From the sequence record NC_007456.1: a DNA stretch of 39,704 bases; one strand, written 5' to 3'. Of this stretch, positions 1 through 39,704 are shown piece after piece. The number at the start of each line of letters is the position of its first letter. The stretch's first letter is position 1. Origin of the DNA: Escherichia phage K1F. The notes under the pieces are model-generated. The model worked only from the letters and a program-made list of their open reading frames with translations. It searched no databases and was not told the DNA's origin. A program made the translations under genes and the position numbers.

Positions 1-178
1 TCTCACAGTTCAAGAACCTCAAGTCTCCCCATAGGCCCTCTTTAAGTCCAGACCAAAGGCCCTACCCCAGTCTATCATAAGGTTGGACCGATGGTCAAGA
101 CGTCAGGTCAACGATAGGTCTAGGCTATGGCTTAGGGAAGGACGATAGGTGGTGACTATTGGTCTGTCTCTGAGTCTC
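1..178. repeat. Left direct terminal repeat (DTR), 178 bp, identical to 39527-39704
   Basis: Window start TCTCACAGTTCAAGAACCTC...CTGTCTCTGAGTCTC recurs exactly at the window end; typical of T7-like linear genomes. Confidence 0.95.
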
Positions 179-189
179 TATCTGTATCA

Positions 190-316
190 GACCATAGGTC
201 ACAGCCATAAGTCATAACCTCTACATCTCATAACCATAAGTCAAAACCTACAGTCTCACTAACCTACAGTCCTACAACCATAAGACACCAACACCTACAG
301 TCATAGACCTACAGTT
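190..316. repeat. Array of short direct repeats (CCTACAGT x4, CCATAAGTC-like x4) next to left DTR
   Basis: CCTACAGT at 247, 263, 294, 308; CCATA(A/G)GTC at 192, 205, 234, 278; analogous to T7 repeats flanking the terminal repeat. Confidence 0.7.
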
Positions 317-567
317 AATAGACACACAGCTATAGACTTAAGGTCAGAGACATGTTAGTCAAAGACTATATCCTCTTACACCATGAGGCCGACGATAGCT
401 CAATCAATATTATTTCGAATTACCTATTGACTATAGGTCCAGACTATGGCCTAATAGCTTCCGTCAACACGACACGGCAACAACCGGATAGTGAAGACGC
501 CTGGTCATCCCGGTTAAGTAGACAGCCTGATAAGTCATACGAACAACAGGCAGATGACAGAAAGTAG

Positions 568-597
568 TTGACAAGATGTAACGATAAGATGTAAGCT
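568..597 (+). promoter_or_regulatory. Candidate host sigma70 early promoter (TTGACA, 18-bp spacer, TAAGCT)
   Basis: Perfect -35 TTGACA at 568-573; weak -10 TAAGCT at 592-597; position matches T7 A-promoter region upstream of gene 0.3. Confidence 0.3.
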
Positions 598-784
598 GTA
601 CCACATCGAAACAACGGTGATGACCAACACTGAAATGGTCTACCTGAAGTCCTCTGACTGAAGGGAATGCTCTTTAACAATCTGGATAAACTCTTAATGT
701 GCGCCGATAGCGACTAACTACAGGGCCTTTGAGTCTACATCTGAAGGCCCTGACTGATAGTCACTAACTTAAAGGATGGACACT

Positions 785-1030
785 ATGAAACACTTAAGCA
801 CAATCACTAATCGCAATGAAGTATTCGTGAACACTAAAGGTTATGCGTGGATTCAGCTTAAAGAGATGACAGGAGCGCGTCACCGTGTGGTAGTGCGCAA
901 GGTCTCAAGCAAGCCGTTCAGCAACTACAGCGTAGATACTGTGCGTATAAACAACGAGACCTACCTGATAGACTCACAGATAACCGTGAGTCCTACAGCG
1001 GGCGTCTCAGCTCCTTATTTCGCTAACTGA
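785..1030 (+). CDS. Hypothetical early protein (82 aa; alternative start 776)
   Basis: ORF with AAGGA 9 nt upstream of ATG 785; first ORF after putative early promoter; no recognised homolog. Confidence 0.5.
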   Translation: MKHLSTITNRNEVFVNTKGYAWIQLKEMTGARHRVVVRKVSSKPFSNYSVDTVRINNETYLIDSQITVSPTAGVSAPYFAN

Positions 1031-1113
1031 GAGTGATTAACTACAGGTCGTTAGACTGCTAGCGGCCTGACTGATAGTCACTAACACATACTTAACTTTG
1101 AGAGGATATACCT

Positions 1114-1623
1114 ATGGAACGTAACGCTAACGCATACTATGAGCTGCTGGCTGCAACTGTTGAGCTGTTCAATGAGCGTATTCAGTACGACGAAATAACT
1201 GAAGGCGATGACTACAGCGATGCGCTGCATGAGGTCGTAGACGGTCAGGTTCCGCACTATTACCACGAGATTTTTACGGTGATGGCTGCTGATGGTATAG
1301 ACCACGAGTTCGAAGACTCTGGGCTGATGCCTGAGACCAAGGACGTAACGCGTATACTACAAGCTCGCATCTATGAGGCGCTGTATAACGATGTGTCTAA
1401 TAGCTCTGAGGTGGTCTGGTTTGAGGCTGAAGAGGAAGACGAAAAGGCTGAATATTGGGTAGTTGACACTAGAACAGGCGAGATAATTGAGGCAGCTGTA
1501 TCACTTTACGAGGCTATTGCATGTGCAAAAGAACTCTATGAGGAAGGTTTTCACATGCAGGTCGAAGACATCAACGATAACGTAGTGTTCGATCCTGCGG
1601 CTGCTGAGGAGGACTGCGAGTGA
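1114..1623 (+). CDS. 0.3: Ocr-like anti-restriction DNA-mimic protein (gene 0.3), 169 aa with C-terminal extension
   Basis: Strong similarity to T7 Ocr core (NERIQYDEI...[45 protein letters not shown]); highly acidic; SD GAGAGGA upstream. Confidence 0.9.
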
Positions 1624-1839
1624 TGGTAACTTATGGTCTCTGCCAGCACCACGTCACCAGCGCCCGGCTTATAGTCCAGACCGGGCGGTTAACCCATGAT
1701 GAGACTATGCGTCTCCTGAAGGTGGTCTACAAGCGCCGCAAGCGTATCCACGACAGTTTGCACGCTGAGTGATAGACGAGAGGCCGTCGACTGATAGGTG
1801 GCCTCAAAGATTATCACTTAAATTGATAGGAGTTAACTA

Positions 1840-2007
1840 ATGAAATTTACAATCATCGCACTTTACATCGCCAGCATTCTGTCATGGCTAACTGCGGTCA
1901 TAGTCGATGGGAATGCACTACGTCTTGGCTGGCTGGCAGTGGACATAATATTCTCTCCGGTAGGGATCGTGCGCGGTCTACTGATGTGGATTGGACTGGC
2001 GGGATAA
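1840..2007 (+). CDS. Small hydrophobic early protein (55 aa)
   Basis: ATG with AGGAG SD (taggagttaactaATG); two hydrophobic segments; not in ORF track (<60 aa). Confidence 0.45.
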   Translation: MKFTIIALYIASILSWLTAVIVDGNALRLGWLAVDIIFSPVGIVRGLLMWIGLAG

Positions 2008-2010
2008 TCT

Positions 2011-2208
2011 ATGAGTCTTGCACTATTGATAGCCATAGGCTATGGACTTATCGCCTACGTGCTGGTGAGAGACATCGACAAAGCGCGTAAAGTCTACAAA
2101 TTCAACTATGTACGTCTGGGCCGCTGGACTGTACGTCAACCTAACGGACGATTCATGCGCAACTTAGCGAACGTCTGGGATATAGCAACTATTGGGAGCA
2201 AACTGTAA
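2011..2208 (+). CDS. Small early protein (65 aa), N-terminal hydrophobic segment
   Basis: ORF track 2011..2208; starts 4 nt after previous ORF stop; position like T7 genes 0.4-0.6. Confidence 0.4.
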   Translation: MSLALLIAIGYGLIAYVLVRDIDKARKVYKFNYVRLGRWTVRQPNGRFMRNLANVWDIATIGSKL

Positions 2209-2473: not shown

Positions 2474-2496
2474 ACTTAACTATCACTATAGGACTC
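2474..2496 (+). promoter_or_regulatory. Phage RNAP promoter copy 1 (ACTTAACTATCACTATA|GGACTC), upstream of the RNAP gene
   Basis: Matches the 11-copy consensus; located 70 bp upstream of gene 1 start. Confidence 0.7.
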
Positions 2497-2565: not shown

Positions 2566-5247
2566 ATGAGCGTCATCTCTATTGACAAACACGACTTCTC
2601 TGATGTGTCGAACGCCATTGAGCCGTTTAACCTGCTGGCCGACCACTACGGGCAAGACCTTGCAGTCAAACAGCTTCAGCTTGAGCATGAGGCATACACT
2701 GAAGGCGAGCGACGTTTCATCAAAAACCTTGAGCGACAGACTGAGCGCGGGGAACTGGCAGACAATCAGGTCGCCAAGCCTTTGATGCAGACTCTGGTTC
2801 CTAAGATTGCGCAAGCCGTCAAGGAGTGGCACGAAGGTCCAGACGGGAAGCTGTCAACCTCTCGTCCTAGCGTAGCGTTCACCATGTTGAGCACTGAAGA
2901 GAGGGCCGTTAAAGACCGTTCTCTACGCATCTCCTGCGAGTCTGCTGCTGTCATCATACTGAAGGTCATCCTCTCCAAGCTGGTCAAGCCTGAAGGGATA
3001 CCGATTACACCGATGGCCTCCGCGATAGGTCGCACACTTGAGGACGAAATCCGCTTCGGGCGCATCCGTGACAAGGAGAAGGAGCACTTCAAGAAGGCGA
3101 TAGCTGATAACCTGAACAAGCGAGCTGGTGCATCCTATAAGAAAGCCTACATGCAAGCGGTCGAAGCATCCATGCTGGAGCAAGGCCAACTGGAAGATGC
3201 ATGGGGGACTTGGAGTCCTACAGAGGCTGTCCACGTTGGCATCAAGATGCTTGAGATTGTCATCCAGTCAACACAACTGGTCGAGCTTAAGCGTTACGGT
3301 GCTGGCAATGCAGCGGCTGATGTCGAGATGGTCCACCTGTCAGACTTCTGGGTCAAGAAGATGGCACAACGTGGATTCAGCCTTGCGGGTATCGCACCAG
3401 TCTATCAGCCTTGCGTCGTTCCACCTAAGCCGTGGACGGGTGTCGTAGGCGGTGGTTACTGGGCCAAAGGTCGCAGACCATTACCGCTGATTCGCTTAGG
3501 CTCTAAGTCTGCGGTAGCACGTTACGAAGACGTGTACATGCCTGAAGTCTATGAAGCTGTGAACATCATTCAGAATACACCTTGGAAAGTGAACAAGAAG
3601 GTTCTGGACGTGGTGAACATGGTCGAGAAGCTGAACAACACGCCTATTGATGACATCCCTCAGATGGAACCACTGAAGCCTGAGGCTTATGCGGGTGAGA
3701 CCGAGGAGGAACTCAAGGCATGGAAGAAGGCTGCTGCTGGTATCTATCGCCGCGAGAAGGCCAGACAGTCACGCAGGTTGTCACTGAGCTTTATCGTTAA
3801 CCAAGCGAACAAGTTCTCTCAGTTCAAGGCTATATGGTTCCCGTACAACATGGACTGGCGCGGTCGCGTCTACGCTGTGCCGATGTTCAACCCTCAGGGT
3901 AACGACATGCAGAAGGGTCTCCTGACTCTGGCAGTTGGCAAGCCTATTGGTGCTGACGGTTTCAAATGGCTAAAGGTACACGGTGCAAACTGCGCGGGTG
4001 TCGATAAAGTCACCTTCGAGGAGCGCATCAAGTGGGTGGAAGACAACCACGACAACATCATGGCTGCTGCTAAAGCACCTATGGACAGCATTGAGTGGTG
4101 GGGAAAGTTAGACTCTCCGTTCTGTTTCCTCGCGTTCTGCTTCGAGTATGCTGGCGTAATGCACCATGGCCTGTCTTACTCCTGCTCGCTGCCGATAGCG
4201 TTCGATGGGTCCTGCTCTGGGATTCAGCACTTCAGCGCGATGCTTCGTGACCACATCGGTGGACATGCGGTAAACCTGACGCCTTCCGGTAAAGTCCAAG
4301 ACATCTACCGCATCGTGTCCGACCGCATTGAGGAGGAGCTTAAAGTCCTGCTGGTTAACGGCACGGACAACGAGATGGTAACTCACGAGGACAAGAAAAC
4401 TGGTGAGATTACCGAGCGTCTCAAGCTGGGGACACGAGAGCTGGCCCGTCAGTGGCTGACCTACGGTATGTCACGAAAGGTCACTAAGCGTTCGGTCATG
4501 ACTCTGGCCTACGGGTCGAAAGAGTACGGCTTCGCAGACCAAGTTTACGAGGACATCGTGATGCCAGCGATTGACTCAGGGTCTGGCGCTATGTTCACTG
4601 AACCAAGCCAAGCATCTCGCTTCATGGCTAAGATGATTTGGGAAGCTGTGAGTGTGACCGTAGTTGCTGCGGTTGACGCGATGAAATGGCTTCAGGGTGC
4701 TGCCAAGCTGCTGGCGGCTGAAGTGAAGGACAAGAAGACGGGTGAAATCCTGAAGCCTTGCCTTCCGGTACACTGGGTCACACCTGATGGGTTCCCGGTC
4801 TGGCAGGAATACCGCAAGAAGGATACTACTCGTCTGAACCTGATGTTCTTAGGGTCCTTCAACCTTCAACCTACCGTCAACAAAGGTACGAAGAAAGAGC
4901 TGGATAAGCACAAGCAGGAGTCAGGCATTAGCCCGAACTTCGTCCACTCACAAGATGGTAGCCACCTCCGCAAGACTGTAGTCCATACTCACCGCAAGTA
5001 TGGCGTGATGTCGTTCGCAGTGATTCACGATAGCTTCGGGACCATCCCGGCTGACGCTGAGTATCTGTTCCGTGGGGTCCGTGAGACTATGGTCGAGACC
5101 TACCGCGACAACGATGTGCTGCTTGACTTCTACGAGCAGTTTGAATACCAGCTTCACGAGAGCCAGCGCGATAAGTTGCCAGAGCTTCCGAAGAAAGGTA
5201 AACTGAATATCGAAGACATCTTGTCTTCAGACTTTGCATTCGCTTAA
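2566..5247 (+). CDS. 1: Single-subunit DNA-directed RNA polymerase (T7 gene 1 homolog), 893 aa
   Basis: Collinear similarity to T7 RNAP from N-terminus (KHDFSD...PFN.LADHYG) to C-terminal DFAFA; AAGGA SD. Confidence 0.97.
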   Translation: MSVISIDKHDFSDVSNAIEPFNLLADHYGQDLAVKQLQLEHEAYTEGERRFIKNLERQTERGELADNQVAKPLMQTLVPKIAQAVKEWHEGPDGKLSTSRPSVAFTMLSTEERAVKDRSLRISCESAAVIILKVILSKLVKPEGIPITPMASAIGRTLEDEIRFGRIRDKEKEHFKKAIADNLNKRAGASYKKAYMQAVEASMLEQGQLEDAWGTWSPTEAVHVGIKMLEIVIQSTQLVELKRYGAGNAAADVEMVHLSDFWVKKMAQRGFSLAGIAPVYQPCVVPPKPWTGVVGGGYWAKGRRPLPLIRLGSKSAVARYEDVYMPEVYEAVNIIQNTPWKVNKKVLDVVNMVEKLNNTPIDDIPQMEPLKPEAYAGETEEELKAWKKAAAGIYRREKARQSRRLSLSFIVNQANKFSQFKAIWFPYNMDWRGRVYAVPMFNPQGNDMQKGLLTLAVGKPIGADGFKWLKVHGANCAGVDKVTFEERIKWVEDNHDNIMAAAKAPMDSIEWWGKLDSPFCFLAFCFEYAGVMHHGLSYSCSLPIAFDGSCSGIQHFSAMLRDHIGGHAVNLTPSGKVQDIYRIVSDRIEEELKVLLVNGTDNEMVTHEDKKTGEITERLKLGTRELARQWLTYGMSRKVTKRSVMTLAYGSKEYGFADQVYEDIVMPAIDSGSGAMFTEPSQASRFMAKMIWEAVSVTVVAAVDAMKWLQGAAKLLAAEVKDKKTGEILKPCLPVHWVTPDGFPVWQEYRKKDTTRLNLMFLGSFNLQPTVNKGTKKELDKHKQESGISPNFVHSQDGSHLRKTVVHTHRKYGVMSFAVIHDSFGTIPADAEYLFRGVRETMVETYRDNDVLLDFYEQFEYQLHESQRDKLPELPKKGKLNIEDILSSDFAFA

Positions 5248-5551: not shown

Positions 5552-5574
5552 CCTAAACTATCACTATAGGATTA
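5552..5574 (+). promoter_or_regulatory. Phage RNAP promoter copy 2 (CCTAAACTATCACTATA|GGATTA)
   Basis: Consensus match; position equals T7 phi1.1 promoters downstream of gene 1. Confidence 0.75.
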
Positions 5575-5618
5575 GACTCAAGGTCATGACTCAAAGTCGT
5601 GGCCTTCATGATTAACCC
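5573..5618 (+). promoter_or_regulatory. Conserved ~45-bp element A (TAGACTCAAGGTCAT...GTGGCCTTCATGATTAACCC), RNase III-site-like
   Basis: One of three near-identical elements (5573, 12860, 36453) at positions matching T7 R1.1, R4.7, R18.5. Confidence 0.4.
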
Positions 5619-5647
5619 TGAATAAACACTACTGGAGATTTAACCGT

Positions 5648-5832: not shown

Positions 5833-6096
5833 ATGGGCCGACTTTATAGTGGCAACCTCAACGCTTTCAGAGCAGCGTGTGACAGGCTCTATCAGTTAGA
5901 CTTCGCTGTCATATCTCAAGAGTTTCAAGACCATGTGTCACGCCAAGAGTGCATGAAACTCAGGGTAGAGGACCGAGCTGGTAACATCTTCGCGCTTAAG
6001 ACCTTCGAACACCGCGATGAAAACGTACTGTACAACACTGCAACAGGCTTCCTTAACTGTCTCGCTAACCAACTCGACACATGGAGCAAATCATAA
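5833..6096 (+). CDS. 1.2: gp1.2-like protein (T7 dGTPase inhibitor homolog), 87 aa
   Basis: N-terminus MGRLYSGNLNAF... closely matches T7 gp1.2. Confidence 0.88.
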   Translation: MGRLYSGNLNAFRAACDRLYQLDFAVISQEFQDHVSRQECMKLRVEDRAGNIFALKTFEHRDENVLYNTATGFLNCLANQLDTWSKS

Positions 6097-7118
6097 TGAC
6101 AACTATTAAAACTAACCCGCACCGCGCTGTAGATTACTCTGAGTCTGGCGTTAAGAAGGCACTGGCAGCAGCCGGGTCGCTGGAAGCTGAAGTGAAGTAT
6201 GACGGTGTGCGCCTGAATCTCCCGGTCCTGCGTGAAGGTGAGACCTACTGGCTGAGCCGTGAGTCTAAACCTCTTCCAGCCTTGGAGTGGATGAACTCTG
6301 AGTTAGGGAATGCGTGGACCCAAGCTGACTGGCGTTGGTTCCTACGTCAAGCTGGATACGAAGGCGTGGGTCTGATGATTGACGGAGAGGTCATGGTCAA
6401 AGGCGTTGACTTCAACACATCATCGGGTCTCATCCGAACGAAGTGGCTGAAGCCTAGCAACGAAGAGTTCGCTGAATGTTATCCGGGACGAGGCAATAAG
6501 GTCCCGTTCTGGGTAGCCCGGTCAAGACTTAAGGTTGTTGTATACGGTGTCGTAGACATGACAACCATTGCTGACCCGAAAGCCGAAGGTCCTATCCATA
6601 GCGTAACCCGCCTGAAGGCCGAAGCTATCGTCCCTCTCCTTCAGAAATACTTCCCGGAAATCGACTGGGTTCTCTCTGAGAGTCATACAGTGTTCAACCT
6701 TGAGTCTCTTCGTGATTTGTACGAGGAGAAGCGAGCAGATGGACATGAAGGTCTGGTAGTCAAGGACCCACTGGGAAAATACAAGCGTGGTAAGAAGTCT
6801 GGTATGTGGAAGATGAAGCCAAGTGAAGAGGCAGATGGTCACGTTGTTCGCCCGGTGTGGGGAACAGAAGGTCTAGCCAACGAAGGTATGGTCATCGGCT
6901 TTGACGTTATGCTCGAGAACGGGATGGAGGTCTCCGCAACTAACATTAGTCGCGCCCTTATGTCCGAGTTCACAGAGAATGTTAAGTCAGACCCTGACTA
7001 CTACAAGGGGTGGGCTTGCCAGATTACCTACATGGAGGAGACACCAGATGGCTCATTGCGACATCCCTCGTTCGACCAGTGGCGTGGGACGGAAGATAAC
7101 CCGACCATTAAGAGCTAA
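6096..7118 (+). CDS. 1.3: ATP-dependent DNA ligase (T7 gene 1.3 homolog)
   Basis: IKTNP...EVKYDGVR (adenylation Lys motif) ...DGEVMVKGVDFNT...EGLVVKDP...WKMKP...WACQITYMEETPDGSLRHPSF; start at ATG 6096 (track 6081) overlapping 1.2 stop. Confidence 0.93.
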   Translation: MTTIKTNPHRAVDYSESGVKKALAAAGSLEAEVKYDGVRLNLPVLREGETYWLSRESKPLPALEWMNSELGNAWTQADWRWFLRQAGYEGVGLMIDGEVMVKGVDFNTSSGLIRTKWLKPSNEEFAECYPGRGNKVPFWVARSRLKVVVYGVVDMTTIADPKAEGPIHSVTRLKAEAIVPLLQKYFPEIDWVLSESHTVFNLESLRDLYEEKRADGHEGLVVKDPLGKYKRGKKSGMWKMKPSEEADGHVVRPVWGTEGLANEGMVIGFDVMLENGMEVSATNISRALMSEFTENVKSDPDYYKGWACQITYMEETPDGSLRHPSFDQWRGTEDNPTIKS

Positions 7119-7182: not shown

Positions 7183-7205
7183 CCTAAGCTATCACTATAG
7201 GACAA
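7183..7205 (+). promoter_or_regulatory. Phage RNAP promoter copy 3 (CCTAAGCTATCACTATA|GGACAA)
   Basis: Consensus match with G at -12. Confidence 0.7.
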
Positions 7206-7229: not shown

Positions 7230-7487
7230 ATGTCTAAGAACTTAATGTTCAACCGTTATTCTAATACCTTCCACCTGTCCAACAACCCGTTCGCTTGCAT
7301 TAAGCGCAACGAGAAACTTGGCTACTTCGGGAAGGCCGTTAAGCTGTCACCTACAGTCTATGCTCTGATTACTCCTGGAAAAGCTGAAGAGGCTCGCCAG
7401 AAGCGTGAGACAAATGTGCCCGTGGTCTACACTAAGTGGCCTCGCGTTCGGCTGTTTGTTGAGGTCGTAAAGGAGGTGTTCTTATGA
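7230..7487 (+). CDS. Hypothetical protein (85 aa), gene 1.4-1.6 position
   Basis: ORF with AAGGAG SD downstream of promoter 7183. Confidence 0.6.
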   Translation: MSKNLMFNRYSNTFHLSNNPFACIKRNEKLGYFGKAVKLSPTVYALITPGKAEEARQKRETNVPVVYTKWPRVRLFVEVVKEVFL

Positions 7488-7930
7488 CTACTTATGATAA
7501 TATGATTATCAAGCTAATCGATATGAACGATGGTAATCCAGACCATTTATATAACTGTTCCTTCAATTGTGCTGGAGTTCCTTGTAACATCTGCCCCGCT
7601 AAGGATGATGACGATATGACCTTAGGTGAAATCCGAGCGATGGACCCGCGTAAATCTCATCTGAATAAACTTGAGGTAACTCCTACAGATGACCAGCCTT
7701 CCACTGAATCAATCGAAGGTGTCACTAAGCCTTCCCATTACATGCTGTTCGACGACATTGAGGCTATCGAAGTGATTGCCCGTTCAATGACTCGTGAGCA
7801 GTTCAAAGGGTACTGCTTAGGGAACATCCTTAAGTACCGCCTACGCGCTGGTAAGAAAGTCAGAACTTGCTTACTTAGAGAAAGCCAGGGCGAAAGTTGG
7901 ATTCTATGGGGAACTGTACGAGAAACATAA
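7484..7930 (+). CDS. gp1.7-like protein (DUF3310-like motifs); C-terminus appears to continue in +1 frame to 7952
   Basis: Motifs KPSHY...IEAIEV...FKGYCLGNILKYRLRAGKK; after AAGAAAG (7853-7859) the +1 frame reads SELAYLEKARAKVGFYGELYEKHKDKCYDA*. Confidence 0.6.
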   Translation: MTTYDNMIIKLIDMNDGNPDHLYNCSFNCAGVPCNICPAKDDDDMTLGEIRAMDPRKSHLNKLEVTPTDDQPSTESIEGVTKPSHYMLFDDIEAIEVIARSMTREQFKGYCLGNILKYRLRAGKKVRTCLLRESQGESWILWGTVRET

Positions 7931-8348: not shown

Positions 8349-8503
8349 CTGAGGTTGAGAAGAAATACATCGTGGAGCTTGAGGGTCGCGTTCAGTCCTT
8401 CGAGGTTCCGTTGTATGCAAAGTCTCTTGAAGAGGCTACCCTGAAGTCCCAAGAGTATGAGGACGCTGGGTTTGTGGTCGGACGGATTCGTCCTGAGACC
8501 TAA
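8345..8503 (+). CDS. 2: Gp2-like inhibitor of host RNA polymerase (52 aa)
   Basis: ...[17 protein letters not shown]...GFVVGRIRP resembles T7 Gp2 (FEVPIYAETLDEA...GFEVTRVRP); AAGGAG SD; not in ORF track (<60 aa). Confidence 0.75.
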
Positions 8504-8614: not shown

Positions 8615-8623
8615 GCCTTACGC

Positions 8624-10935: not shown

Positions 10936-12856
<1,921 letters not shown>

Positions 12857-28709: not shown

Positions 28710-28713
28710 CATA

Positions 28714-31700: not shown

Positions 31701-32601
31701 GCGTAAGTTCGATGACCGCTGGCTGAAGACCGCTGGTATCTCTGACGAGCAGTGGAAGGGCATTAAGTCCCTCATCCGTGAGTCAGTGACGCGTGGTCCA
31801 GACGGGAAGTACACCATCAAGGATAAGAAGGCGTTCAGTCAGGACCCAAGGGCTATGGACCTGTGGCGTATGGGTGACACCATCGCTGATGAAACGTTAC
31901 TCCGTCCTCATAAGCTGTCCAACATGGACGCCAAGGCTTATGGTCCTATCGCTAAGACTGTCCTTCAGTTTAAGAACTTCGTCATCAAGTCCATCAATGG
32001 GCGAACCATGCGTACCTTCTATAACGCCACGAAGAACAACCGAGCGATTGACGCTGCACTATCGACCGTGATGTCTATGGGTCTGGCTGGTATCTACTAC
32101 ATGGCTCAGGCGCACGTCAAGGCTTATGCTATGCAGGATGGTCGAGACCGTGACTACCTTAAGCAAGCTCTGGACCCGACGATGATTGGTTATGCGGCTC
32201 TGTCCCGTAGTTCACATCTGGGTGGCCCACTTGGGGTAGCTAACATTCTAGGTGGCATCGCTGGGTATGAGGACACTAAGATGCTCCGTTCGTCTATCCT
32301 ACCTCGTTCGCCTACAGAGAAGCCTGAACGTGCCATCACGTTTGGTGCAGCTACAAGTGACCCTGTGATGAATGTTGTTGGTAACTTCTTGGAGCAGGTT
32401 CCAGCTTTCGGATATGCTGCTAACGTTGGCGTTTCTGCTTACAACTTGGCTGGCTACCTCAAGGCTGATACTCGTGTCAACGAGCGTGACTACATGACCG
32501 GGATGTATAATACGTTCCGTGAACTGGTTCCGAACGACCCCATTACCCAGAAGCTGTTGCTTGGAATGTTTGAGGAGCAAGGCATCCACATCAAGGACTA
32601 A
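28714..32601 (+). CDS. 16: Internal virion protein D (T7 gene 16 homolog), 1295 aa; N-terminal ~140 aa divergent from T7
   Basis: Collinear with T7 gp16 from about residue 190 (...FGFG.A.EAE...RLEARETARN...DLVRSPTGMQSGASGK...NPAMFG...GTYVPHVY...); N-terminus starts MATRGIRNNNPGNIR. Confidence 0.93.
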   Translation: MATRGIRNNNPGNIRVSKDQWEGMTGDDGAFVTFDSPESGVRALGKNLLSYGRQGYDSIEKIINRWAPPNENDTQAYIDSVVAATGIPATQSLDLSNPDTLSALAQAISFHETGSRYNPEVYQQGVARALNGISPKTPPVSANVFDALTEGLKAKPKVALGENLPTAAGLNIEGQAPEAPNESFGEMFYKATGETMQEREDRSTWFGFGTATEAEVKNSMVGVAIRAGQTEDSLDVIGDVFNPTRWNNHKWSREELDQIRNAGVLPQYYGVITGGSPQNLTELINLALENQKFDQEKAKAGTGAQLAAGVIGAGVDPLTYVPIAGQVGKGGKLVNKMFTVAAQSGALAGASEIARTSVAGGDAHVAEAIMGGALFGGGMTAIGDAIGKALGKSTNEFAGPATRLEARETARNVDGQDLSRMPIREGEETFSHQGVKFADVPNEPGSVRLEDGSILIGENPLNPKTRQVFDEVIEPERAAAGVNLGGLTEIGLKLLRSENPEIRGVATDLVRSPTGMQSGASGKIGTTASDVFERLRAVDHRFYNDIDDAVTEALKDPYFQTAFWRDSGAFRQDIYQRVSMAIEDGSGNLKAELTPGELKVYDLLKNQFDAKREMMENPAMFGRPDAQSIFPGSRFKGTYVPHVYSKQMKELYIKELGSPEALQEAIKKSWLTSYASRPEVKKRVDEALLEADPTLTPEGLAAAVDKYANDKAYGISHTEQFERSSVMEENINGLVGLENNSFLEARNLFDSDMSIVLPNGQTFSVNNLREWDMDKIVPAYNRRINGDIAIMAGTGKTTKDMKDLVETMMNKAGDDGKLKGEVSTLRDTLKILTGRARRDGADDAAFATVMRTMTDLSFFAKNAYMGVQNLTEIGGMLARGNVRAMLHGVPIFRDLAFRNKKVGASEIKDLHNVIFGKELDDSIRPSKQDVIDRLRSYSDLGRGTATALGTAKYYTGELAVRSPFTKVLNGTTNYLLDAGRQGFLSDIVEHSLTGSKRKFDDRWLKTAGISDEQWKGIKSLIRESVTRGPDGKYTIKDKKAFSQDPRAMDLWRMGDTIADETLLRPHKLSNMDAKAYGPIAKTVLQFKNFVIKSINGRTMRTFYNATKNNRAIDAALSTVMSMGLAGIYYMAQAHVKAYAMQDGRDRDYLKQALDPTMIGYAALSRSSHLGGPLGVANILGGIAGYEDTKMLRSSILPRSPTEKPERAITFGAATSDPVMNVVGNFLEQVPAFGYAANVGVSAYNLAGYLKADTRVNERDYMTGMYNTFRELVPNDPITQKLLLGMFEEQGIHIKD

Positions 32602-32619
32602 ACTATCACTATAGGAAAC
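32597..32619 (+). promoter_or_regulatory. Phage RNAP promoter copy 10 (ACTAAACTATCACTATA|GGAAAC)
   Basis: Consensus match; overlaps gene 16 stop; upstream of tail spike gene. Confidence 0.75.
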
Positions 32620-32665: not shown

Positions 32666-35600
32666 ATGTCCACGATTACACAATTCCCTTCAGGAAACAC
32701 TCAGTACAGGATTGAGTTCGACTACCTAGCCAGAACGTTTGTTGTTGTTACGCTGGTGAATAGCTCTAACCCTACCCTGAACCGTGTACTGGAAGTTGGT
32801 CGAGATTACCGATTCCTTAACCCAACGATGATTGAGATGTTGGTGGACCAATCAGGTTTCGACATCGTTCGTATTCACCGTCAGACTGGGACTGACTTAG
32901 TGGTAGACTTCAGGAATGGCTCAGTGTTGACAGCTAGTGACCTGACCACTGCAGAGCTTCAGGCTATCCATATTGCAGAAGAAGGTCGAGACCAAACGGT
33001 TGACTTAGCGAAGGAATATGCCGATGCTGCTGGTAGCTCTGCTGGCAACGCTAAGGATAGCGAGGACGAAGCACGACGAATCGCTGAGAGTATCAGGGCA
33101 GCTGGTCTAATTGGTTATATGACCCGTCGCTCCTTCGAGAAAGGCTACAACGTTACAACATGGAGCGAGGTCCTGCTATGGGAAGAGGATGGTGATTATT
33201 ACCGCTGGGATGGTACGCTTCCAAAGAACGTTCCTGCTGGTTCAACTCCTGAAACTTCCGGTGGGATTGGATTAGGTGCGTGGGTTAGTGTTGGTGATGC
33301 TGCTTTAAGAAGTCAGATTTCAAACCCGGAAGGGGCAATACTCTACCCTGAATTACATAGAGCACGCTGGCTTGATGAAAAAGATGCTCGTGGTTGGGGT
33401 GCTAAAGGGGATGGTGTCACTGATGATACAGCAGCGTTAACGAGCGCATTAAACGACACACCGGTTGGACAAAAGATTAATGGCAATGGGAAGACATATA
33501 AGGTCACATCCCTGCCTGACATTAGTCGCTTCATCAACACTCGTTTCGTTTATGAGCGCATTCCCGGACAACCTCTTTATTATGCCTCTGAAGAATTTGT
33601 TCAGGGTGAGCTATTCAAAATAACGGACACCCCTTATTACAATGCGTGGCCTCAGGATAAAGCGTTCGTATATGAGAATGTGATATATGCACCTTACATG
33701 GGTAGCGATCGTCATGGTGTTAGTCGTCTGCATGTATCATGGGTTAAGTCTGGTGATGATGGTCAAACATGGTCTACTCCAGAGTGGTTAACTGATCTGC
33801 ATCCAGATTACCCTACAGTGAACTATCATTGTATGAGTATGGGTGTATGTCGCAACCGTCTGTTTGCCATGATTGAAACACGTACCTTAGCCAAGAACGC
33901 ATTAACCAATTGTGCATTGTGGGATCGCCCCATGTCTCGTAGCCTGCATCTTACTGGTGGTATCACTAAAGCTGCAAATCAGCGATATGCAACAATACAT
34001 GTACCAGACCACGGACTATTCGTGGGTGATTTTGTTAACTTCTCTAATTCTGCGGTAACAGGTGTATCCGGTGATATGACTGTTGCAACCGTAATAGATA
34101 AGGACAACTTCACGGTTCTTACACCCAACCAGCAGACTTCAGATTTGAATAACGCTGGAAAGAATTGGCACATGGGTACTTCTTTCCATAAGTCTCCATG
34201 GCGTAAGACAGATCTTGGTCTAATCCCTAGTGTCACAGAGGTGCATAGCTTTGCTACTATTGATAACAATGGCTTTGCTATGGGCTATCATCAAGGTGAT
34301 GTAGCTCCACGAGAAGTTGGGCTTTTCTACTTCCCTGATGCTTTCAATAGCCCATCTAATTATGTTCGTCGTCAGATACCATCTGAGTATGAACCAGATG
34401 CGTCAGAGCCGTGCATCAAGTACTATGACGGTGTATTATACCTTATCACTCGTGGCACTCGTGGTGATAGACTAGGTAGCTCTTTGCATCGTAGTAGAGA
34501 CATAGGTCAGACTTGGGAGTCACTGAGATTTCCACATAATGTTCATCATACTACATTACCTTTTGCTAAAGTAGGGGATGACCTTATTATGTTTGGTTCA
34601 GAACGTGCAGAAAATGAATGGGAAGCAGGTGCACCAGATGATCGTTACAAGGCATCTTATCCTCGCACCTTCTATGCACGCTTGAATGTAAACAATTGGA
34701 ATGCAGATGATATTGAATGGGTTAACATCACTGACCAGATTTATCAGGGCGGAATAGTTAACTCAGGTGTAGGTGTTGGTTCGGTAGTTGTGAAGGATAA
34801 TTACATCTACTACATGTTTGGTGGAGAGGACCATTTTAACCCATGGACATATGGAGATAACTCAGCGAAAGACCCATTCAAATCGGATGGTCACCCCTCG
34901 GATTTGTATTGCTACAAAATGAAGATTGGCCCAGACAATCGTGTTTCCAGAGATTTCAGATATGGTGCTGTACCCAACAGAGCTGTTCCCGTGTTTTTTG
35001 ATACGAATGGGGTTCGCACTGTTCCTGCGCCAATGGAATTTACAGGGGATTTGGGTTTAGGTCATGTGACCATTAGAGCCAGCACCAGTAGTAACATTCG
35101 CTCTGAAGTTTTAATGGAAGGTGAATATGGGTTTATCGGGAAATCTATACCGACTGATAACCCGGCAGGGCAGCGCATCATATTTTGCGGGGGTGAAGGC
35201 ACCAGTTCAACGACTGGCGCACAGATTACGCTATATGGTGCAAATAACACCGACTCAAGGCGAATAGTTTACAACGGAGATGAGCATCTATTTCAGAGTG
35301 CTGATGTTAAGCCTTATAACGATAACGTCACTGCGCTTGGTGGGCCTAGCAACCGTTTCACCACTGCATACCTCGGAAGCAACCCTATTGTTACTTCTAA
35401 CGGGGAGAGGAAAACAGAGCCGGTAGTTTTTGATGATGCTTTCCTGGATGCCTGGGGTGACGTTCACTACATCATGTACCAGTGGTTAGATGCTGTTCAA
35501 CTGAAAGGCAATGATGCTCGTATTCACTTCGGGGTTATTGCTCAGCAAATTCGTGATGTATTCATTGCACATGGTCTGATGGATGAAAACAGTACGAATT

Positions 35601-35860
35601 GTCGTTATGCTGTTCTGTGCTATGACAAGTATCCACGGATGACCGATACGGTATTTTCGCACAATGAAATCGTTGAACACACTGACGAGGAGGGTAATGT
35701 CACTACTACGGAAGAACCTGTGTACACCGAGGTGGTTATTCACGAAGAGGGTGAGGAGTGGGGTGTTCGGCCTGACGGAATTTTCTTTGCTGAAGCCGCT
35801 TATCAGAGAAGAAAACTGGAAAGAATCGAAGCCAGACTTTCTGCTCTTGAACAGAAGTAA
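32666..35860 (+). CDS. 17: Tail spike: T7 gp17-like N-terminal anchor + large catalytic region + C-terminal intramolecular chaperone domain; probable endosialidase
   Basis: N-terminus FDYLARTFVVVTLVNS...DYRF resembles T7 gp17; C-terminal 153 aa (from S911: TSNGERK...IHFGVIAQQIRDV...) is the self-cleaving chaperone-domain type; 1064 aa with Ser911 matches endoNF of phage K1F from memory. Confidence 0.9.
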   Translation: MSTITQFPSGNTQYRIEFDYLARTFVVVTLVNSSNPTLNRVLEVGRDYRFLNPTMIEMLVDQSGFDIVRIHRQTGTDLVVDFRNGSVLTASDLTTAELQAIHIAEEGRDQTVDLAKEYADAAGSSAGNAKDSEDEARRIAESIRAAGLIGYMTRRSFEKGYNVTTWSEVLLWEEDGDYYRWDGTLPKNVPAGSTPETSGGIGLGAWVSVGDAALRSQISNPEGAILYPELHRARWLDEKDARGWGAKGDGVTDDTAALTSALNDTPVGQKINGNGKTYKVTSLPDISRFINTRFVYERIPGQPLYYASEEFVQGELFKITDTPYYNAWPQDKAFVYENVIYAPYMGSDRHGVSRLHVSWVKSGDDGQTWSTPEWLTDLHPDYPTVNYHCMSMGVCRNRLFAMIETRTLAKNALTNCALWDRPMSRSLHLTGGITKAANQRYATIHVPDHGLFVGDFVNFSNSAVTGVSGDMTVATVIDKDNFTVLTPNQQTSDLNNAGKNWHMGTSFHKSPWRKTDLGLIPSVTEVHSFATIDNNGFAMGYHQGDVAPREVGLFYFPDAFNSPSNYVRRQIPSEYEPDASEPCIKYYDGVLYLITRGTRGDRLGSSLHRSRDIGQTWESLRFPHNVHHTTLPFAKVGDDLIMFGSERAENEWEAGAPDDRYKASYPRTFYARLNVNNWNADDIEWVNITDQIYQGGIVNSGVGVGSVVVKDNYIYYMFGGEDHFNPWTYGDNSAKDPFKSDGHPSDLYCYKMKIGPDNRVSRDFRYGAVPNRAVPVFFDTNGVRTVPAPMEFTGDLGLGHVTIRASTSSNIRSEVLMEGEYGFIGKSIPTDNPAGQRIIFCGGEGTSSTTGAQITLYGANNTDSRRIVYNGDEHLFQSADVKPYNDNVTALGGPSNRFTTAYLGSNPIVTSNGERKTEPVVFDDAFLDAWGDVHYIMYQWLDAVQLKGNDARIHFGVIAQQIRDVFIAHGLMDENSTNCRYAVLCYDKYPRMTDTVFSHNEIVEHTDEEGNVTTTEEPVYTEVVIHEEGEEWGVRPDGIFFAEAAYQRRKLERIEARLSALEQK

Positions 35861-35993: not shown

Positions 35994-36188
35994 ATGATTG
36001 AGTTAGACTTCAAGAATGAGGTCCTTAAAGCCTCTCCTATCGTCGGGACCGCTGCGGCTGATGGTGCCAGTCGGTTCTTCTTTGGACTCACACTGAACGA
36101 ATGGTTCTACGTTGCGGCTATCGCGTACACCGTTGTCCAAATTGGTGTGCTGGTCTACAAAACGATTAAAGGAGGTGGTAAAACATGA
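35994..36188 (+). CDS. 17.5: Holin (T7 gene 17.5 homolog), 64 aa
   Basis: ...SPIVGTAAADGASRFFFGLTLNEWFYVAAIAYTVVQIG... near-identical to T7 gp17.5 core; one TM segment; SD GGAGG. Confidence 0.85.
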   Translation: MIELDFKNEVLKASPIVGTAAADGASRFFFGLTLNEWFYVAAIAYTVVQIGVLVYKTIKGGGKT

Positions 36189-36448
36189 CGCAGATGGACT
36201 TAGAGAAGTTCCTATTGATGCTGGATACTGAACGTGCTCGACTCATGCTGCAAGACTTACGTGACGACTCTAAGCGTTCACCTCAGCTCTACAACGCCAT
36301 TGAGAAGCTGCTTGCTCGTCACAACTTTGTGTTAAGCAAGGTGTCTGTGGACGAGAAGACGCTGGCTGATATGGAGGCCCTGAACGCAGAGTACGATAAG
36401 GTGCTTTCAGCGACTGAGGATAATGACACCGGGTATGGTGTTCAATAA
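36185..36448 (+). CDS. 18: Terminase small subunit (T7 gene 18 homolog)
   Basis: ...RSPQLYNAIEKLLARH.F... matches T7 gp18 (RSPQLYNAIEKLLDRHKF); ATGA overlap with holin. Confidence 0.85.
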   Translation: MTQMDLEKFLLMLDTERARLMLQDLRDDSKRSPQLYNAIEKLLARHNFVLSKVSVDEKTLADMEALNAEYDKVLSATEDNDTGYGVQ

Positions 36449-36452
36449 GTGT

Positions 36453-36498
36453 TAGACTCAAGGTCATTACTATATGTAGTGGCCTTTATGGTTAACAC
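36453..36498 (+). promoter_or_regulatory. Conserved ~45-bp element C (RNase III-site-like), after gene 18
   Basis: TAGACTCAAGGTCATTACTATATGTAGTGGCCTTTATGGTTAACAC; T7 R18.5 position. Confidence 0.4.
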
Positions 36499-36550
36499 TA
36501 ACTAGTGGAGGCGACTCTACGTGAAAATCTGATAAACCGGGAGGGCAACT

Positions 36551-37000
36551 ATGCTCGAATTTTTAAAGAGGGCGGCTCCGTGGTTACTTGCAGCAGTGAT
36601 GTTTGCTGGTGGCTACCACACCGCTAACAATAAGTGGGAGGCTAAGGTCAATGCGGAATACACCTCGAATCTTAAGGCATCGGAAGATACAAGGCTTGCT
36701 GTCCAAGCTGAAGTCAACAAAGTGTCCAAACGGTTTCAGGACGAAATGTCCTCGTTGGAAGGCAGCACTGATAGGATTATTGCTGACCTTAAGTCTGACA
36801 ATAAGCGGCTGCTCATCCGAGTCAAACCTACGAGTGGAACCACGCAAAGTGACGGTCGATGCTTCATTGATGGTTACGCCGAACTTGACGAACGAGATGC
36901 TAAACGTCTTATCGCCATCGGAGTGAAAGGAGACAAGTGGATTAAGGCCCTTCAAGACACTGTGAGAGCCTTACAGCAAGAGAAGGAGGTGACGCATTGA
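36551..37000 (+). CDS. 18.5: Rz-like i-spanin (T7 gene 18.5 homolog)
   Basis: N-terminal TM segment ([15 protein letters not shown]), coiled-coil periplasmic domain; SD GGGAGGG. Confidence 0.8.
36651..36926 (+). CDS. 18.7: Rz1-like o-spanin lipoprotein embedded in +1 frame of 18.5 (gene 18.7 homolog)
   Basis: Signal/lipobox [16 protein letters not shown]; ...RWKAALIGL...ISGCSSES...[15 protein letters not shown] resembles T7 gp18.7; ATG 36651 within track ORF 36603..36926 (TTG start). Confidence 0.75.
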   Translation: MRNTPRILRHRKIQGLLSKLKSTKCPNGFRTKCPRWKAALIGLLLTLSLTISGCSSESNLRVEPRKVTVDASLMVTPNLTNEMLNVLSPSE

Positions 37001-38757
37001 GTAAAGACTTAGTGGCGCGTCAGGCGCTAATGACTGCCCGTATGAAGGCAGACTTCGTGTTCTTCCTGTTCGTCCTGTGGAAAGCTCTGTCACTCCCGGT
37101 CCCGACTCGCTGTCAGATTGACATGGCGAAGAAACTATCGGCTGGTGACAACAGGCGTTTCATCTTACAGGCGTTCCGTGGTATCGGGAAGTCCTTCATT
37201 ACGTGTGCATTCGTGGTCTGGAAGCTATGGAACAACCCAGACTTGAAGTTCATGATTGTGTCGGCCTCAAAGGAACGAGCCGATGCGAACTCCATCTTCA
37301 TCAAGCGAATCATCGACCTCATGCCTCAGCTTAAGGAACTCAAACCTAAGCAGGGACAGCGAGATGCGGTTATCAGCTTCGACGTTGGACCAGCCAAGCC
37401 GGACCACTCACCTTCGGTTAAGTCCGTTGGTATCACTGGTCAGTTGACTGGTAGTCGTGCTGACATCCTGATTGCCGATGACGTGGAGGTTCCGAACAAC
37501 TCAGCGACTCAGGCTGCACGAGACCGTCTGTCAGAGCTTGTGAAAGAGTTCGATGCTATCCTGAAGCCCGGAGGCACAATCATCTATCTGGGTACTCCTC
37601 AGAACGAGATGACCCTGTATCGTGAGCTGGAAGGTCGTGGGTACACCACTACTATCTGGCCTGCTCGTTATCCACGCGACAGGAAGGACTGGCAGTCTTA
37701 CGGCGACCGTCTGGCTCCTATGCTTCAGGCAGAACTGGAAGAGGACCCTGAGTCCTTCTACTGGCGTCCGACCGACGAGGTACGCTTCGATGATACGGAC
37801 CTGAAGGAACGTGAGTTGTCATATGGCAAGGCTGGCTTCGCTCTACAGTTCATGCTTAACCCGAACCTGAGTGATGCTGAGAAGTACCCTCTGAAGCTCC
37901 GTGACCTTATCGTAGCCGACTTGGACCCAGCGTCTAGCCCAATGGTATACCAATGGCTTCCTAACCCTCAGAACAAGCGTGAGGACGTTCCTAACGTTGG
38001 ACTCATGGGTGACTCATACCACACGTATCAGACTGTAGGTTCTGCCTTCAGTTCGTACACCCAGAAGATTCTGGTCATTGACCCTAGTGGTCGTGGTAAA
38101 GATGAAACTGGTTATGCGGTACTGTACCAGCTCAACGGCTACATCTTCGCTATGGAAGTTGGCGGTATGCGAGGTGGCTATGAAGACTCTACGCTGGAAG
38201 CCTTGGCTAAGATTGGTCGTAAGTGGAAGGTCAACGAATACGTCATTGAGGGTAACTTCGGTGATGGTATGTACCTTGAGCTATTCAAGCCTGTAGCGGC
38301 CCGTATTCATCCTGCTGCTGTAACTGAAGTGAAGAGTAAGGGTCAGAAGGAACTCCGCATCTGTGACGTTCTGGAGCCTATCATGGGGTCTCACCGACTT
38401 ATCGTTAACGCTGCTGCTATCGTCCAAGACTACCAGTCAGCCTCTGATAAGGATGGTGTGCGTAACCCTATCTACTCTCTCTTCTACCAGATGACCCGTA
38501 TCTCTCGTGAACGTGGAGCCTTGGCACACGATGACCGACTTGATGCGCTGGCTATCGGTGTACAGTTCTTCGTTGAGTCGATGGCTAAGGATGCCAACAA
38601 AGGCGAACGTGAAGTCACTGAGGAGTGGCTGGAAGAACAGATGGAGAACCCACGGAAAGGCTTCGAGTCCATCCACACTGAGTTCTGGGACAATGGGGTC
38701 CGGGTAACTCATGATACAGACGAGCTGGGACTAGGGTCCTACGTTACGTTCCATTAG
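36997..38757 (+). CDS. 19: Terminase large subunit (T7 gene 19 homolog), 586 aa, apparent TTG start
   Basis: ...[50 protein letters not shown]... nearly identical to T7 gp19; TTG 36997 preceded by AAGGAGGTGA, overlaps 18.5 stop. Confidence 0.93.
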
Positions 38758-38766
38758 CTGAGTGAA

Positions 38767-38815
38767 TAACTATAGGTGAAAACTGCATGAATACGCAGTT
38801 AGTAACCTATAGTTA
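38767..38815 (+). other. Nested inverted repeat / hairpin downstream of terminase gene
   Basis: TAACTATAGGT (38767-38777) is the exact reverse complement of ACCTATAGTTA (38805-38815); inner AACTGC/GCAGTT pair around an 8-nt loop. Confidence 0.6.
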
Positions 38816-38851
38816 CTACCAGTCTAACCTACTGTTTTACAAGGAGTTTGG

Positions 38852-38874
38852 ACTTAACTATCACTATAGGAAGA
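38852..38874 (+). promoter_or_regulatory. Phage RNAP promoter copy 11 (ACTTAACTATCACTATA|GGAAGA), phiOR analog
   Basis: Consensus match downstream of gene 19, as T7 phiOR. Confidence 0.75.
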
Positions 38875-39052
38875 CTACCGGTTACTTATAGTATTACTGT
38901 AGTGAATATACATATGCAGACTTTATGCAAGACCTTAGGAGGCAGACTCCGAGTTCTTACCTAAGGCTTGCACCGATGGAAGGAGGTGATATTAATCATA
39001 ATACCTCCAATACAGATAGTCACAGACCATAGATACAGGAGGTATGTAGCAT

Positions 39053-39214
39053 ATGGCAAAGACCAAAGCTGTACTTAAAGCTCTGGCGACCAATCGAGCT
39101 ACATACAGGTTTCTTGCTGCTGTTCTACTTGCTGCTGGCGTTACTACTGCTGGAAGTCAGTGGGTCGGGTGGGTCGAGACTCTCATATGTTCTCTGGTGT
39201 CTGAGTGTCGTTAA
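39053..39214 (+). CDS. Small hydrophobic protein (53 aa), gene 19.5 position
   Basis: ATG with AGGAGG SD; Ala/Leu-rich hydrophobic core; last ORF region before right DTR. Confidence 0.45.
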   Translation: MAKTKAVLKALATNRATYRFLAAVLLAAGVTTAGSQWVGWVETLICSLVSECR

Positions 39215-39249
39215 CGCCGTAATGGTAACAATCAACGAAAGGAGGTAGT

Positions 39250-39318
39250 ATGGACGAAGAGTCTTACGGTTCGTTCTCTGAAGAGGACTATAAGACGGAG
39301 TGGGAATACGCCCATTGA
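39250..39318 (+). CDS. Possible 22-codon ORF with strong SD
   Basis: AAAGGAGGT 5 nt upstream of ATG; acidic peptide MDEESYGSFSEEDYKTEWEYAH. Confidence 0.25.
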   Translation: MDEESYGSFSEEDYKTEWEYAH

Positions 39319-39444
39319 AGACCTAAGGTCAGTTCATAGCTGACGCTACTCTACTGACCTTAGCTACTGTAGTCAAGGACTTTAGGTAACACCTTAAGAG
39401 AAGCTCACTTAGGGTCATCCTACTTATTGGTCTATCCTAGTGTC

Positions 39445-39490
39445 GCCTGACCTACGGTCCTTGACCTACAGTGGCTGTGGCCTACAGCAG
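39445..39490. repeat. Short direct repeats (CCTACGGT/CCTACAGT/CCTACAGC) next to right DTR
   Basis: Same CCTACAGT motif family as at 247-315 beside the left DTR. Confidence 0.65.
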
Positions 39491-39526
39491 TGACGATGAG
39501 TTTTGGACCAAAAGTTTGAGACCACA

Positions 39527-39704
39527 TCTCACAGTTCAAGAACCTCAAGTCTCCCCATAGGCCCTCTTTAAGTCCAGACCAAAGGCCCTACCCCAGTCTA
39601 TCATAAGGTTGGACCGATGGTCAAGACGTCAGGTCAACGATAGGTCTAGGCTATGGCTTAGGGAAGGACGATAGGTGGTGACTATTGGTCTGTCTCTGAG
39701 TCTC
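39527..39704. repeat. Right direct terminal repeat (DTR), 178 bp
   Basis: Exact copy of 1-178. Confidence 0.95.

Follow-up and report, generated by a model that had tools for sequence, protein, structure and literature searches.

Escherichia phage K1F record NC_007456.1: a complete, long-published Kayfunavirus genome whose single-base indels are almost certainly sequencing errors

Introduction

Coliphage K1F has been sequenced twice, the structure of its tail spike has been solved, and the phage serves as a routine model for engineering and therapy. NC_007456 has been tabulated as K1F with 39,704 bp and 43 genes (PMC2266997), and coliphage K1F has also been given as DQ111067.1 (PMC6301781); Scholl and Merril (2005) is confirmed as the K1F reference in PMC6277420. 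The terminal repeat of K1F is stated to be 179 bp, citing Scholl and Merril, in PMC4925675, where the K1F intron is also mentioned. Close counterparts of this intron are the group I introns of phages PhiI and W31, which lie in the T7-type DNA polymerase gene and hold an HNH open reading frame (ORF) inside the ribozyme, as in K1F; PMC3428280 cites them as self-splicing (Bonocora and Shub, 2004). The present analysis concerns the record NC_007456.1, one strand of 39,704 nucleotides that was analysed as a whole and is called the window here. It is, with near certainty, the complete linear genome of a single phage, Escherichia phage K1F (Kayfunavirus, T7 supergroup), in which 11 single-base insertions or deletions (indels) relative to the other K1F record are sequencing errors.

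Genome identity and layout

The window (39,704 bases, G+C 49.8%) was searched by megablast against 50,697 phage records. The best match was Escherichia phage K1F, represented by AM084414.1 and its RefSeq copy NC_007636.1 (39,699 bp), with 99.9% identity in the first 25 kb and 100% in the last 15.7 kb. Full alignment with AM084414 gave 99.96% identity and 15 differences in 39,707 alignment columns covering the whole length. The window is 5 bp longer, and the 178-bp terminal repeat, the genes, the intron and the tail spike are all the same in AM084414/NC_007636. The next-closest relatives were other Kayfunavirus phages at 93-96% (megablast), and no large unexplained insertions were found. Under the convention of the International Committee on Taxonomy of Viruses, phages of one species share more than 95% genome-wide nucleotide identity. 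At 99.96% to AM084414 across 100% of its length, the window falls within the species Kayfunavirus K1F, and, to judge by its length and the literature listings, it is most likely the earlier deposited version of that genome, DQ111067/NC_007456, from Scholl and Merril (2005).

The features that define the ends of the molecule and its membership of the T7-like phages are as follows.

1..178, + strand: left direct terminal repeat, identical to 39527-39704
39527..39704, + strand: right direct terminal repeat, identical to 1-178
179..351, + strand: non-coding left end with short imperfect repeats and CCATAAGTC / ACCTACAGT motifs; Tandem Repeats Finder arrays at 205-264 and 293-323
2566..5247, + strand: gene 1, single-subunit RNA polymerase, 893-aa ORF; 62.6% identical to T7 gp1 over 883 aa; Pfam RNA_pol, E 1.5e-106

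The longest perfect match between the two ends of the window is 178 bp (also recovered as repeat family D3). Since phages Vec13 and Peacock are annotated with terminal repeats of 179 bp, the repeat is a family feature rather than an accident of assembly. The short left-end repeats presumably resemble the left-end repeat arrays of T7. All 49 genes of the gene set lie on the + strand and together account for 91% of the window. On the - strand, the ten longest ORFs (117-173 aa) match no PHROG family and all lie inside + strand genes. A tRNA scan of the whole window found none, and no Rfam family was found in it at curated thresholds. A single-subunit RNA polymerase of its own, one-strand T7 gene order, short direct terminal repeats, a linear genome and spread predicted phage promoters place the window among the T7-like phages (Autographiviridae, Studiervirinae).

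The window shares its general plan with T7 (NC_001604), namely terminal repeats and one coding strand. A blastx comparison with 56 T7 proteins gave 38 matches, every one of them in a + frame. From gene 0.3 to gene 19.2 they keep the order of T7; the sole exception is the match to T7 gp7.7, which comes from an HNH ORF in the intron of gene 5. The order in common runs through genes 0.3, 1, 1.2, 1.3, 1.6-2.5, 3, 3.5, 4, 5, 5.7, 6, 6.5-7.3 and 8-19, at protein identities of 37-77%, and T7 gp5.5 and gp7 are matched in K1F at the level of PHROG profiles only. No blastx match was obtained in K1F for T7 0.4-0.7, 1.1, 1.4, 1.5, 2.8, 3.8, 4.1, 4.3-4.7, 5.3, 5.9, 6.3, 19.3 and 19.5. Unlike T7, K1F has an intron in gene 5 and a different early accessory set, without the gene 0.7 kinase. 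A first-pass annotation, made from the letters alone, had likened the size and tail spike features to those of coliphage K1F and had proposed one whole T7-like genome on the strength of perfect 178-bp terminal repeats, single-strand gene orientation, T7 gene order and 11 phage promoters; the nucleotide search, the gene-by-gene comparison and the promoter scan described below bear out this proposal in all its parts.

Single-base differences from AM084414

The 15 differences from AM084414 consist of 11 single-base indels and four substitutions, all within 2243-22285. In the full alignment the indel sites are 2243, 2258, 5698, 7856, 8610, 8631, 10111, 10294-10297, 12631 and 15898. Seven genes (0.38, 1.15, 1.7, 2.5, 3.2, 4 and 5.5) are frameshifted by them, including the following.

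7484..7930, + strand: gene 1.7, nucleotide kinase, in which an extra A at 7856 changes the C-terminus; 72% identical to T7 gp1.7; phrog_2585
8561..9259, + strand: gene 2.5, single-stranded DNA (ssDNA)-binding protein; its own ORF in the window runs from 8624
9708..10178, + strand: gene 3.2, function-unknown protein; an extra C at 10111 changes the C-terminus; phrog_16385 and phrog_15211
10939..12699, + strand: gene 4, primase/helicase, 586 aa; true stop at about 12640

Each site of difference was checked against the relatives 216Ecol046PP, Vec13 and Peacock, all three sequenced independently, which side with AM084414 and not with the window at every site where they can be aligned. The AM084414 reading also matches the gene lengths of the relatives and T7 (699 nt for gene 2.5), and gives gene 5.5 a length of 291 nt, as in the relatives. 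With an extra G at 12631, gp4 runs to 586 aa in the window, whereas AM084414, T7 and the relatives all have 566 aa, and the gene 2.5 ORF of the window begins 21 codons late, with paired indels at 8610 and 8631. Because the independent relatives agree with AM084414, which restores the gene lengths, the 11 indels are almost certainly base-calling or sequencing errors of this record version and not biology, as judged by sequence comparison.

A further genome, MN510331.1 (vB_EcoP_PR_Kaz2018), contains the indels and the coding-sequence coordinates of the window. It is likewise 39,704 long and aligns with the window free of gaps, at about 95% identity outside the segments that are shared exactly. 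Identity to the window reaches 100% precisely where the other relatives have no sequence (7482-7774 and 9712-9989). PR_Kaz2018 is not regarded as independent, because of this equal length, the gapless alignment and the restriction of 100% identity to segments that the relatives lack. MN510331 appears to be a consensus assembled with this record as the reference, from which gaps were filled.

The group I intron of gene 5

The gene for the DNA polymerase is interrupted in the window, and its parts are arranged as listed.

12921..14936, + strand: gene 5 (DNA polymerase) exon 1, corresponding to T7 gp5 aa 4-653; boundary set through intronless relatives
14937..15534, + strand: group I intron, 598 nt, with a TAA stop at its start and G at its end; Rfam RF00028; absent in Bas105 and Peacock
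15019..15414, + strand: intron ORF gp5.3, predicted HNH homing endonuclease, 131 aa
15535..15690, + strand: gene 5 exon 2, corresponding to T7 gp5 aa 654-704

The DNA polymerase ORF stops at 14939; T7 gp5 residues 4-653 correspond to 12948-14936, and residues 654-704 to 15535-15687. A permissive Rfam scan of 14700-15800 matched RF00028 over the full model at 14927-15524 (35.7 bits, E 3.4e-7), with a large insertion housing the intron ORF. A match to the turnip yellow mosaic virus (TYMV) pseudoknot in the permissive scan (E 3.7) was dismissed as chance. Since Rfam detected the intron only below the curated cut-off, confirmation was sought in intronless relatives, and two of these, Bas105 and Peacock, fixed the bounds of the insertion at 14937-15534. 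Exon 1 ends in ...GTGCAT, the intron ends in ...AAAG, exon 2 starts with GATGAG, and the intronless target site of Peacock and Bas105 contains GCATGGGTTCACGAYGAR. Splicing would join the exons into one uninterrupted reading frame of 723 aa, whose product aligns without a gap to the DNA polymerase of intronless Peacock at 98.3% identity. In the consensus fold of eight copies, the last exon U is found in a U-G pair of P1 (columns 10/24) in 8/8, and four pairs are changed on both sides. With only two sequence types among the copies, this covariation is modest. In AM084414, gene 5 is entered as a join of two pieces. The intron is genuine, and already known.

The same element occupies the same codon in phages 13a, Bas102, PC127, WX2 and mtp4, and is carried by Kayfunavirus, Teseptimavirus (13a), Berlinvirus, Teetrevirus and a Yersinia phage. 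Relative to the K1F copy, the non-coding intron parts are 84-98% identical, the ORF 72-80% and the exons in other genera 59-78%; a mobile intron that spreads horizontally would be expected to leave such a pattern, with conservation higher in the intron flanks than in the ORF and the exons. The K1F intron has 598 nt against 601-602 nt in 13a-type copies, with a 3-nt difference in the P1 loop. Immediately before the intron (14922-14936), an identical 15-nt sequence, ATGGCATGGGTGCAT, was seen in all intron-carrying phages examined, while the two intronless relatives read ATGGCATGGGTTCAC there, which amounts to two synonymous changes at the splice junction. The contrast between ATGGCATGGGTGCAT and ATGGCATGGGTTCAC fits either the needs of P1 pairing or co-conversion during homing.

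The intron ORF product gp5.3 matches Pfam HNH_3 (E 7e-16, aa 40-81) and phrog_6254 (E 3e-46), and is 41.5% identical to T7 gp7.7 over 53 aa. It also matches the model HEase (PDLC03704) of PADLOC-DB over its full 131 residues (E 7e-75); a sequence search of PDB with gp5.3 gave no match. Competition through an intron endonuclease has been shown for the jumbo phage PhiPA3 (PMC11620839). Similarly, gp5.3 might cut the DNA polymerase gene of intronless T7-like phages in mixed infection, which would lend K1F a competitive edge and make the element not merely selfish. That five T7-like genera carry a nearly identical element at a single site is consistent with this suggestion, which we nevertheless hold to be rather doubtful.

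The endosialidase tail spike

32666..35860, + strand: gene 17, endosialidase tail spike endoNF, 1064 aa; seven Pfam domains and PDB matches

The gp17 protein is laid out as a T7 adaptor (aa 10-115), a catalytic part (aa 246-910) and a C-terminal chaperone domain from aa 911, and contains beta-propeller, beta-barrel, stalk and C-terminal chaperone domains. The Pfam matches comprise the T7 tail-fibre N-terminal domain (aa 10-115), Tail_spike_N (aa 156-211), the four endosialidase domains End_N_terminal, End_beta_propel, End_beta_barrel and End_tail_spike (aa 246-910), and Peptidase_S74 (aa 916-971). Residues 245-910 and 790-1064 match solved endoNF chains at 626-1577 bits (1V0E and 3GVL, endoNF; 3GW6, its C-terminal chaperone domain). 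Similarity to T7 gp17 is confined to aa 6-113 (T7 aa 12-119). Vec13 and Peacock keep the N-terminal ~255 aa of gp17 and carry other enzymatic modules, 33432-35890 being absent from them, whereas 216Ecol046PP has the whole of gene 17 in common with K1F, including the endosialidase module. Gene 17 is a known module swap, in which an endosialidase is joined to a T7-type adaptor.

Early and accessory genes

Besides genes 1.7 and 3.2, given above, the early region contains the following.

1114..1623, + strand: gene 0.3, Ocr DNA mimic; Pfam ocr, E 3.6e-32; PDB 1s7z/2y7c over aa 8-111
6096..7118, + strand: gene 1.3, ATP-dependent DNA ligase; 51.5% identical to T7 gp1.3; Pfam DNA_ligase_A_M and DNA_ligase_C
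7942-8169, + strand: gp1.75, the only accessory ORF with no PHROG match; relatives have an annotated gene of 228 nt there

The gp0.3 protein carries an insertion of ~57 aa before its C-terminal EDCE (1437-1602, aa ~110-165), which is present in 216Ecol046PP and absent in Vec13, Peacock and T7. In the structure model of gp0.3 (mean predicted local distance difference test score, pLDDT, 65) the insert is predicted to form a small beta-beta-alpha-beta-beta domain at pLDDT ~80-86; a Foldseek search of the model against PDB returned nothing at E <= 0.001. The gp3.2 protein consists of a variable N-terminal half, in which alternative modules are found, and a C-terminal domain of 70 aa, which is conserved and in phage Peacock forms a separate protein of 74 aa. 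Sequence searches of Pfam and PDB with gp3.2 gave no match, and its structure prediction from a four-sequence alignment (mean pLDDT 34.6) gave no usable model. Except for gp1.75, the accessory ORFs belong to existing PHROG families, most of them function-unknown (gp0.1, 0.2, 0.35-0.38, 1.1, 1.15, 3.2 and 3.7). When ten accessory proteins were compared with PADLOC-DB 2.0, nine had no match, and the tenth was the intron endonuclease with its HEase model. As a lesser reading, the extra Ocr domain, or gp3.2, may be a counter-defence module.

Alternative explanations

Three observations weigh against parts of the interpretation given here. Sites 2243 and 2258 can be compared in one independent relative only, as the others lack the segment; the published terminal repeat has 179 bp against 178 in the window, a one-base gap that is considered trivial; and the Rfam score of the intron (35.7 bits) lies under the curated cut-off of its family (50). 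The window could instead be a genuine laboratory variant of K1F, with the 11 indels being real mutations that alter or truncate gp0.38, 1.15, 1.7, 2.5, 3.2, 4 and 5.5; the differences do exist, and PR_Kaz2018 has the same indels and coding-sequence coordinates. However, PR_Kaz2018 shows the pattern expected of a consensus assembled on this record, the independent relatives agree with AM084414 where alignable, the essential ssDNA-binding protein would lose its first 21 codons, and the last residues of gp4 would be replaced by unrelated sequence in the 586-aa reading, so that we consider a laboratory variant highly improbable and retain sequencing errors as the explanation. A comparable question arises for gene 5, where a free-standing HNH gene might split the polymerase into two separately translated polypeptides, no self-splicing intron being involved. 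The Rfam score under the gathering cut-off would allow this, and translation of exon 2 might begin at an in-frame ATG at 15517, yielding a 57-aa peptide that AM084414 lists as gp5.4. Yet the Rfam match covers the full model, the boundary rules of group I introns are obeyed (U-G pair at the 5' splice site, terminal G), the helices contain compensatory changes, and the non-coding flanks of the ORF are conserved across genera above the level of the ORF and of the exons in other genera. The introns of PhiI and W31 in the same gene are, moreover, reported as self-splicing (Bonocora and Shub, 2004, cited in PMC3428280). A split polymerase is hardly credible against this evidence, and an intron, probably self-splicing, is preferred.

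It may also be asked whether an accessory ORF, or a group of them, represents an undescribed anti-defence or mobile system. Ten of the ORFs fall into function-unknown PHROG families and gp1.75 into none, the extra domain of gp0.3 is confidently predicted, and gp3.2 has alternative N-terminal modules. Nevertheless, these ORFs are small, single and scattered, and are common to many Kayfunavirus or other T7-like phages; none of them matches a PADLOC model; no repeats, integrase, transposase or operon-like cluster surround them; and nothing goes beyond the usual early-gene variability of the T7 family. An undescribed system is very unlikely on these grounds, and the ORFs are better regarded as ordinary accessory genes of a known phage. 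The first-pass annotation had likewise seen no such system apart from the intron, the tail spike swap and a few accessory ORFs. Its intron proved to be 598 nt long and exactly bounded by intronless relatives, its tail spike swap is upheld by the endosialidase domains and the endoNF structures, with T7 likeness limited to the N-terminus, and its negative statement agrees with the PHROG families and with a PADLOC match to the intron endonuclease only.

Promoters, hairpins and terminator

The motif AACTATCACTATAGG occurs in 11 copies with <=2 mismatches, all on the + strand and each just upstream of a gene, against a chance expectation of ~0.9 matches even at 3 mismatches. The copies are listed here with their mismatches to AACTATCACTATAGG.

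2478..2492, + strand: promoter core upstream of gene 1, 0 mismatches
5556..5570, + strand: promoter core in the gap after gene 1.1, 0 mismatches
7187..7201, + strand: promoter core upstream of gene 1.6, 1 mismatch
8503..8517, + strand: promoter core upstream of gene 2.5, 1 mismatch
10870..10884, + strand: promoter core upstream of gene 4, the weakest of the eleven, 2 mismatches
17181..17195, + strand: promoter core upstream of gene 6.5, 0 mismatches
20002..20016, + strand: promoter core upstream of gene 9, 0 mismatches
21001..21015, + strand: promoter core upstream of gene 10, 0 mismatches
25325..25339, + strand: promoter core upstream of gene 13, 0 mismatches
32601..32615, + strand: promoter core upstream of gene 17, 0 mismatches
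38856..38870, + strand: promoter core near the right end, at the T7 phiOR position, 0 mismatches

From their number, strand and placement, the eleven sites qualify as predicted phage promoters. T7 has 17 annotated phage promoters against these 11, and a different promoter consensus. A twelfth AACTATCACTATAGG site with 3 mismatches, at 33821 inside gene 17, is probably not a promoter, nor is a degenerate copy at 17205. The gene 1 promoter (2446-2493) and the right-end promoter (38824-38871) are 83% identical over 48 nt, well past the core. The first phage promoter stands directly upstream of gene 1, and no left-end promoter corresponds to T7 phiOL. A scan of 1-8600 for sigma-70 and terminator consensus gave fewer matches than shuffled sequence, and no claim is made for an early host promoter or terminator. 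The sole TTGACA seen by eye in the left-end sequence is at 568-573.

Three conserved hairpins and one terminator-like element were located.

5572..5624, + strand: conserved hairpin at the T7 R1.1 position, between genes 1.1 and 1.15 and downstream of the 5556 promoter; repeat families D11 and D15; fold z -2.3
12854..12905, + strand: conserved hairpin upstream of gene 5; family D15; fold z -2.6
36452..36504, + strand: conserved hairpin between genes 18 and 18.5, at the T7 R18.5 position; family D11; 81% identical to 5572-5624; fold z -5.8
22328..22355, + strand: terminator-like hairpin and T run after gene 10, at the T7 Tphi position

The three conserved hairpins have the core GACTCAAGGTCAT...GGCCTT in common. 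All three occupy places that hold RNase III sites in T7 and, by analogy, are likely RNase III processing sites.

Other genes and segments missing from close relatives

The remaining replication, capsid and late genes are listed below.

16184..17050, + strand: gene 6, exonuclease; 51% identical to T7 gp6
17813..18181, + strand: T7 gene 7-like host-range protein (gp6.8 in the annotation, where the start lies further upstream); aa 58-185 of the longer ORF match phrog_2746; start placed according to relatives
18434..20002, + strand: gene 8, portal; 68% identical to T7 gp8; Pfam Head-tail_con
21136..22179, + strand: gene 10A, major capsid protein; 70% identical to T7 gp10A; Pfam Gp10A-like
22158..22310, + strand: probable 10B extension; slippery motif GGTTTTC followed by the -1 frame, with its stop at 22308-22310
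22373..32601, + strand: genes 11, 12 (tail tube), 13, 14, 15 and 16 (internal virion proteins); collinear T7 matches at 38-53%; Pfam Phage_nozzle for gp12
35994..38757, + strand: genes 17.5 (holin), 18, 18.5/18.7 (spanins) and 19 (large terminase); collinear T7 matches; terminase Pfam domains

A 10B minor capsid product is likely to arise by -1 frameshifting at the slippery motif. The same frameshift product is annotated as 10B in Peacock, and AM084414 has no 10B annotation. The A/C difference at 22285 gives Asp versus Ala in the 10B frame.

Comparison of the window with three close relatives revealed five segments, of 78-599 nt, that are missing from all three.

7482-7710: N-terminal part of gp1.7; also in other coliphages (LNA7 and C5, among others) at 86-88% identity
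8170-8247: intergenic stretch of 78 nt
9712-9938: N-terminal half of gp3.2; 96% in Providencia phage EPr2 and 79% in EcoDS1
14936-15534: intron
22182-22304: tail of the probable 10B product

Implications

By analogy with T7 biology, the host RNA polymerase would transcribe the early left-end genes, among them the genes for the phage RNA polymerase and the anti-restriction protein Ocr, and the phage enzyme would then read the eleven phage promoters across the remaining genome. The 178-bp terminal repeats would, on the same T7 model, allow concatemer formation and packaging. The endosialidase tail spike, in place of a tail fibre, digests the K1 polysialic acid capsule. Three features set K1F apart from T7, namely the intron with its HNH endonuclease, the endosialidase tail spike and the early accessory genes, and all of them have been described before. 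The genome is the long-published K1F, with no undescribed system, and its discovery value is little.

The value of the analysis lies in data quality. About 11 indels corrupt seven gene models of this record, including the C-terminus of the primase/helicase and the start of the ssDNA-binding protein. These probable sequencing errors, and their apparent spread into at least one later GenBank genome (MN510331) through reference-guided assembly, are worth passing on. For protein sets or phage engineering, AM084414/NC_007636 is preferable to this record.

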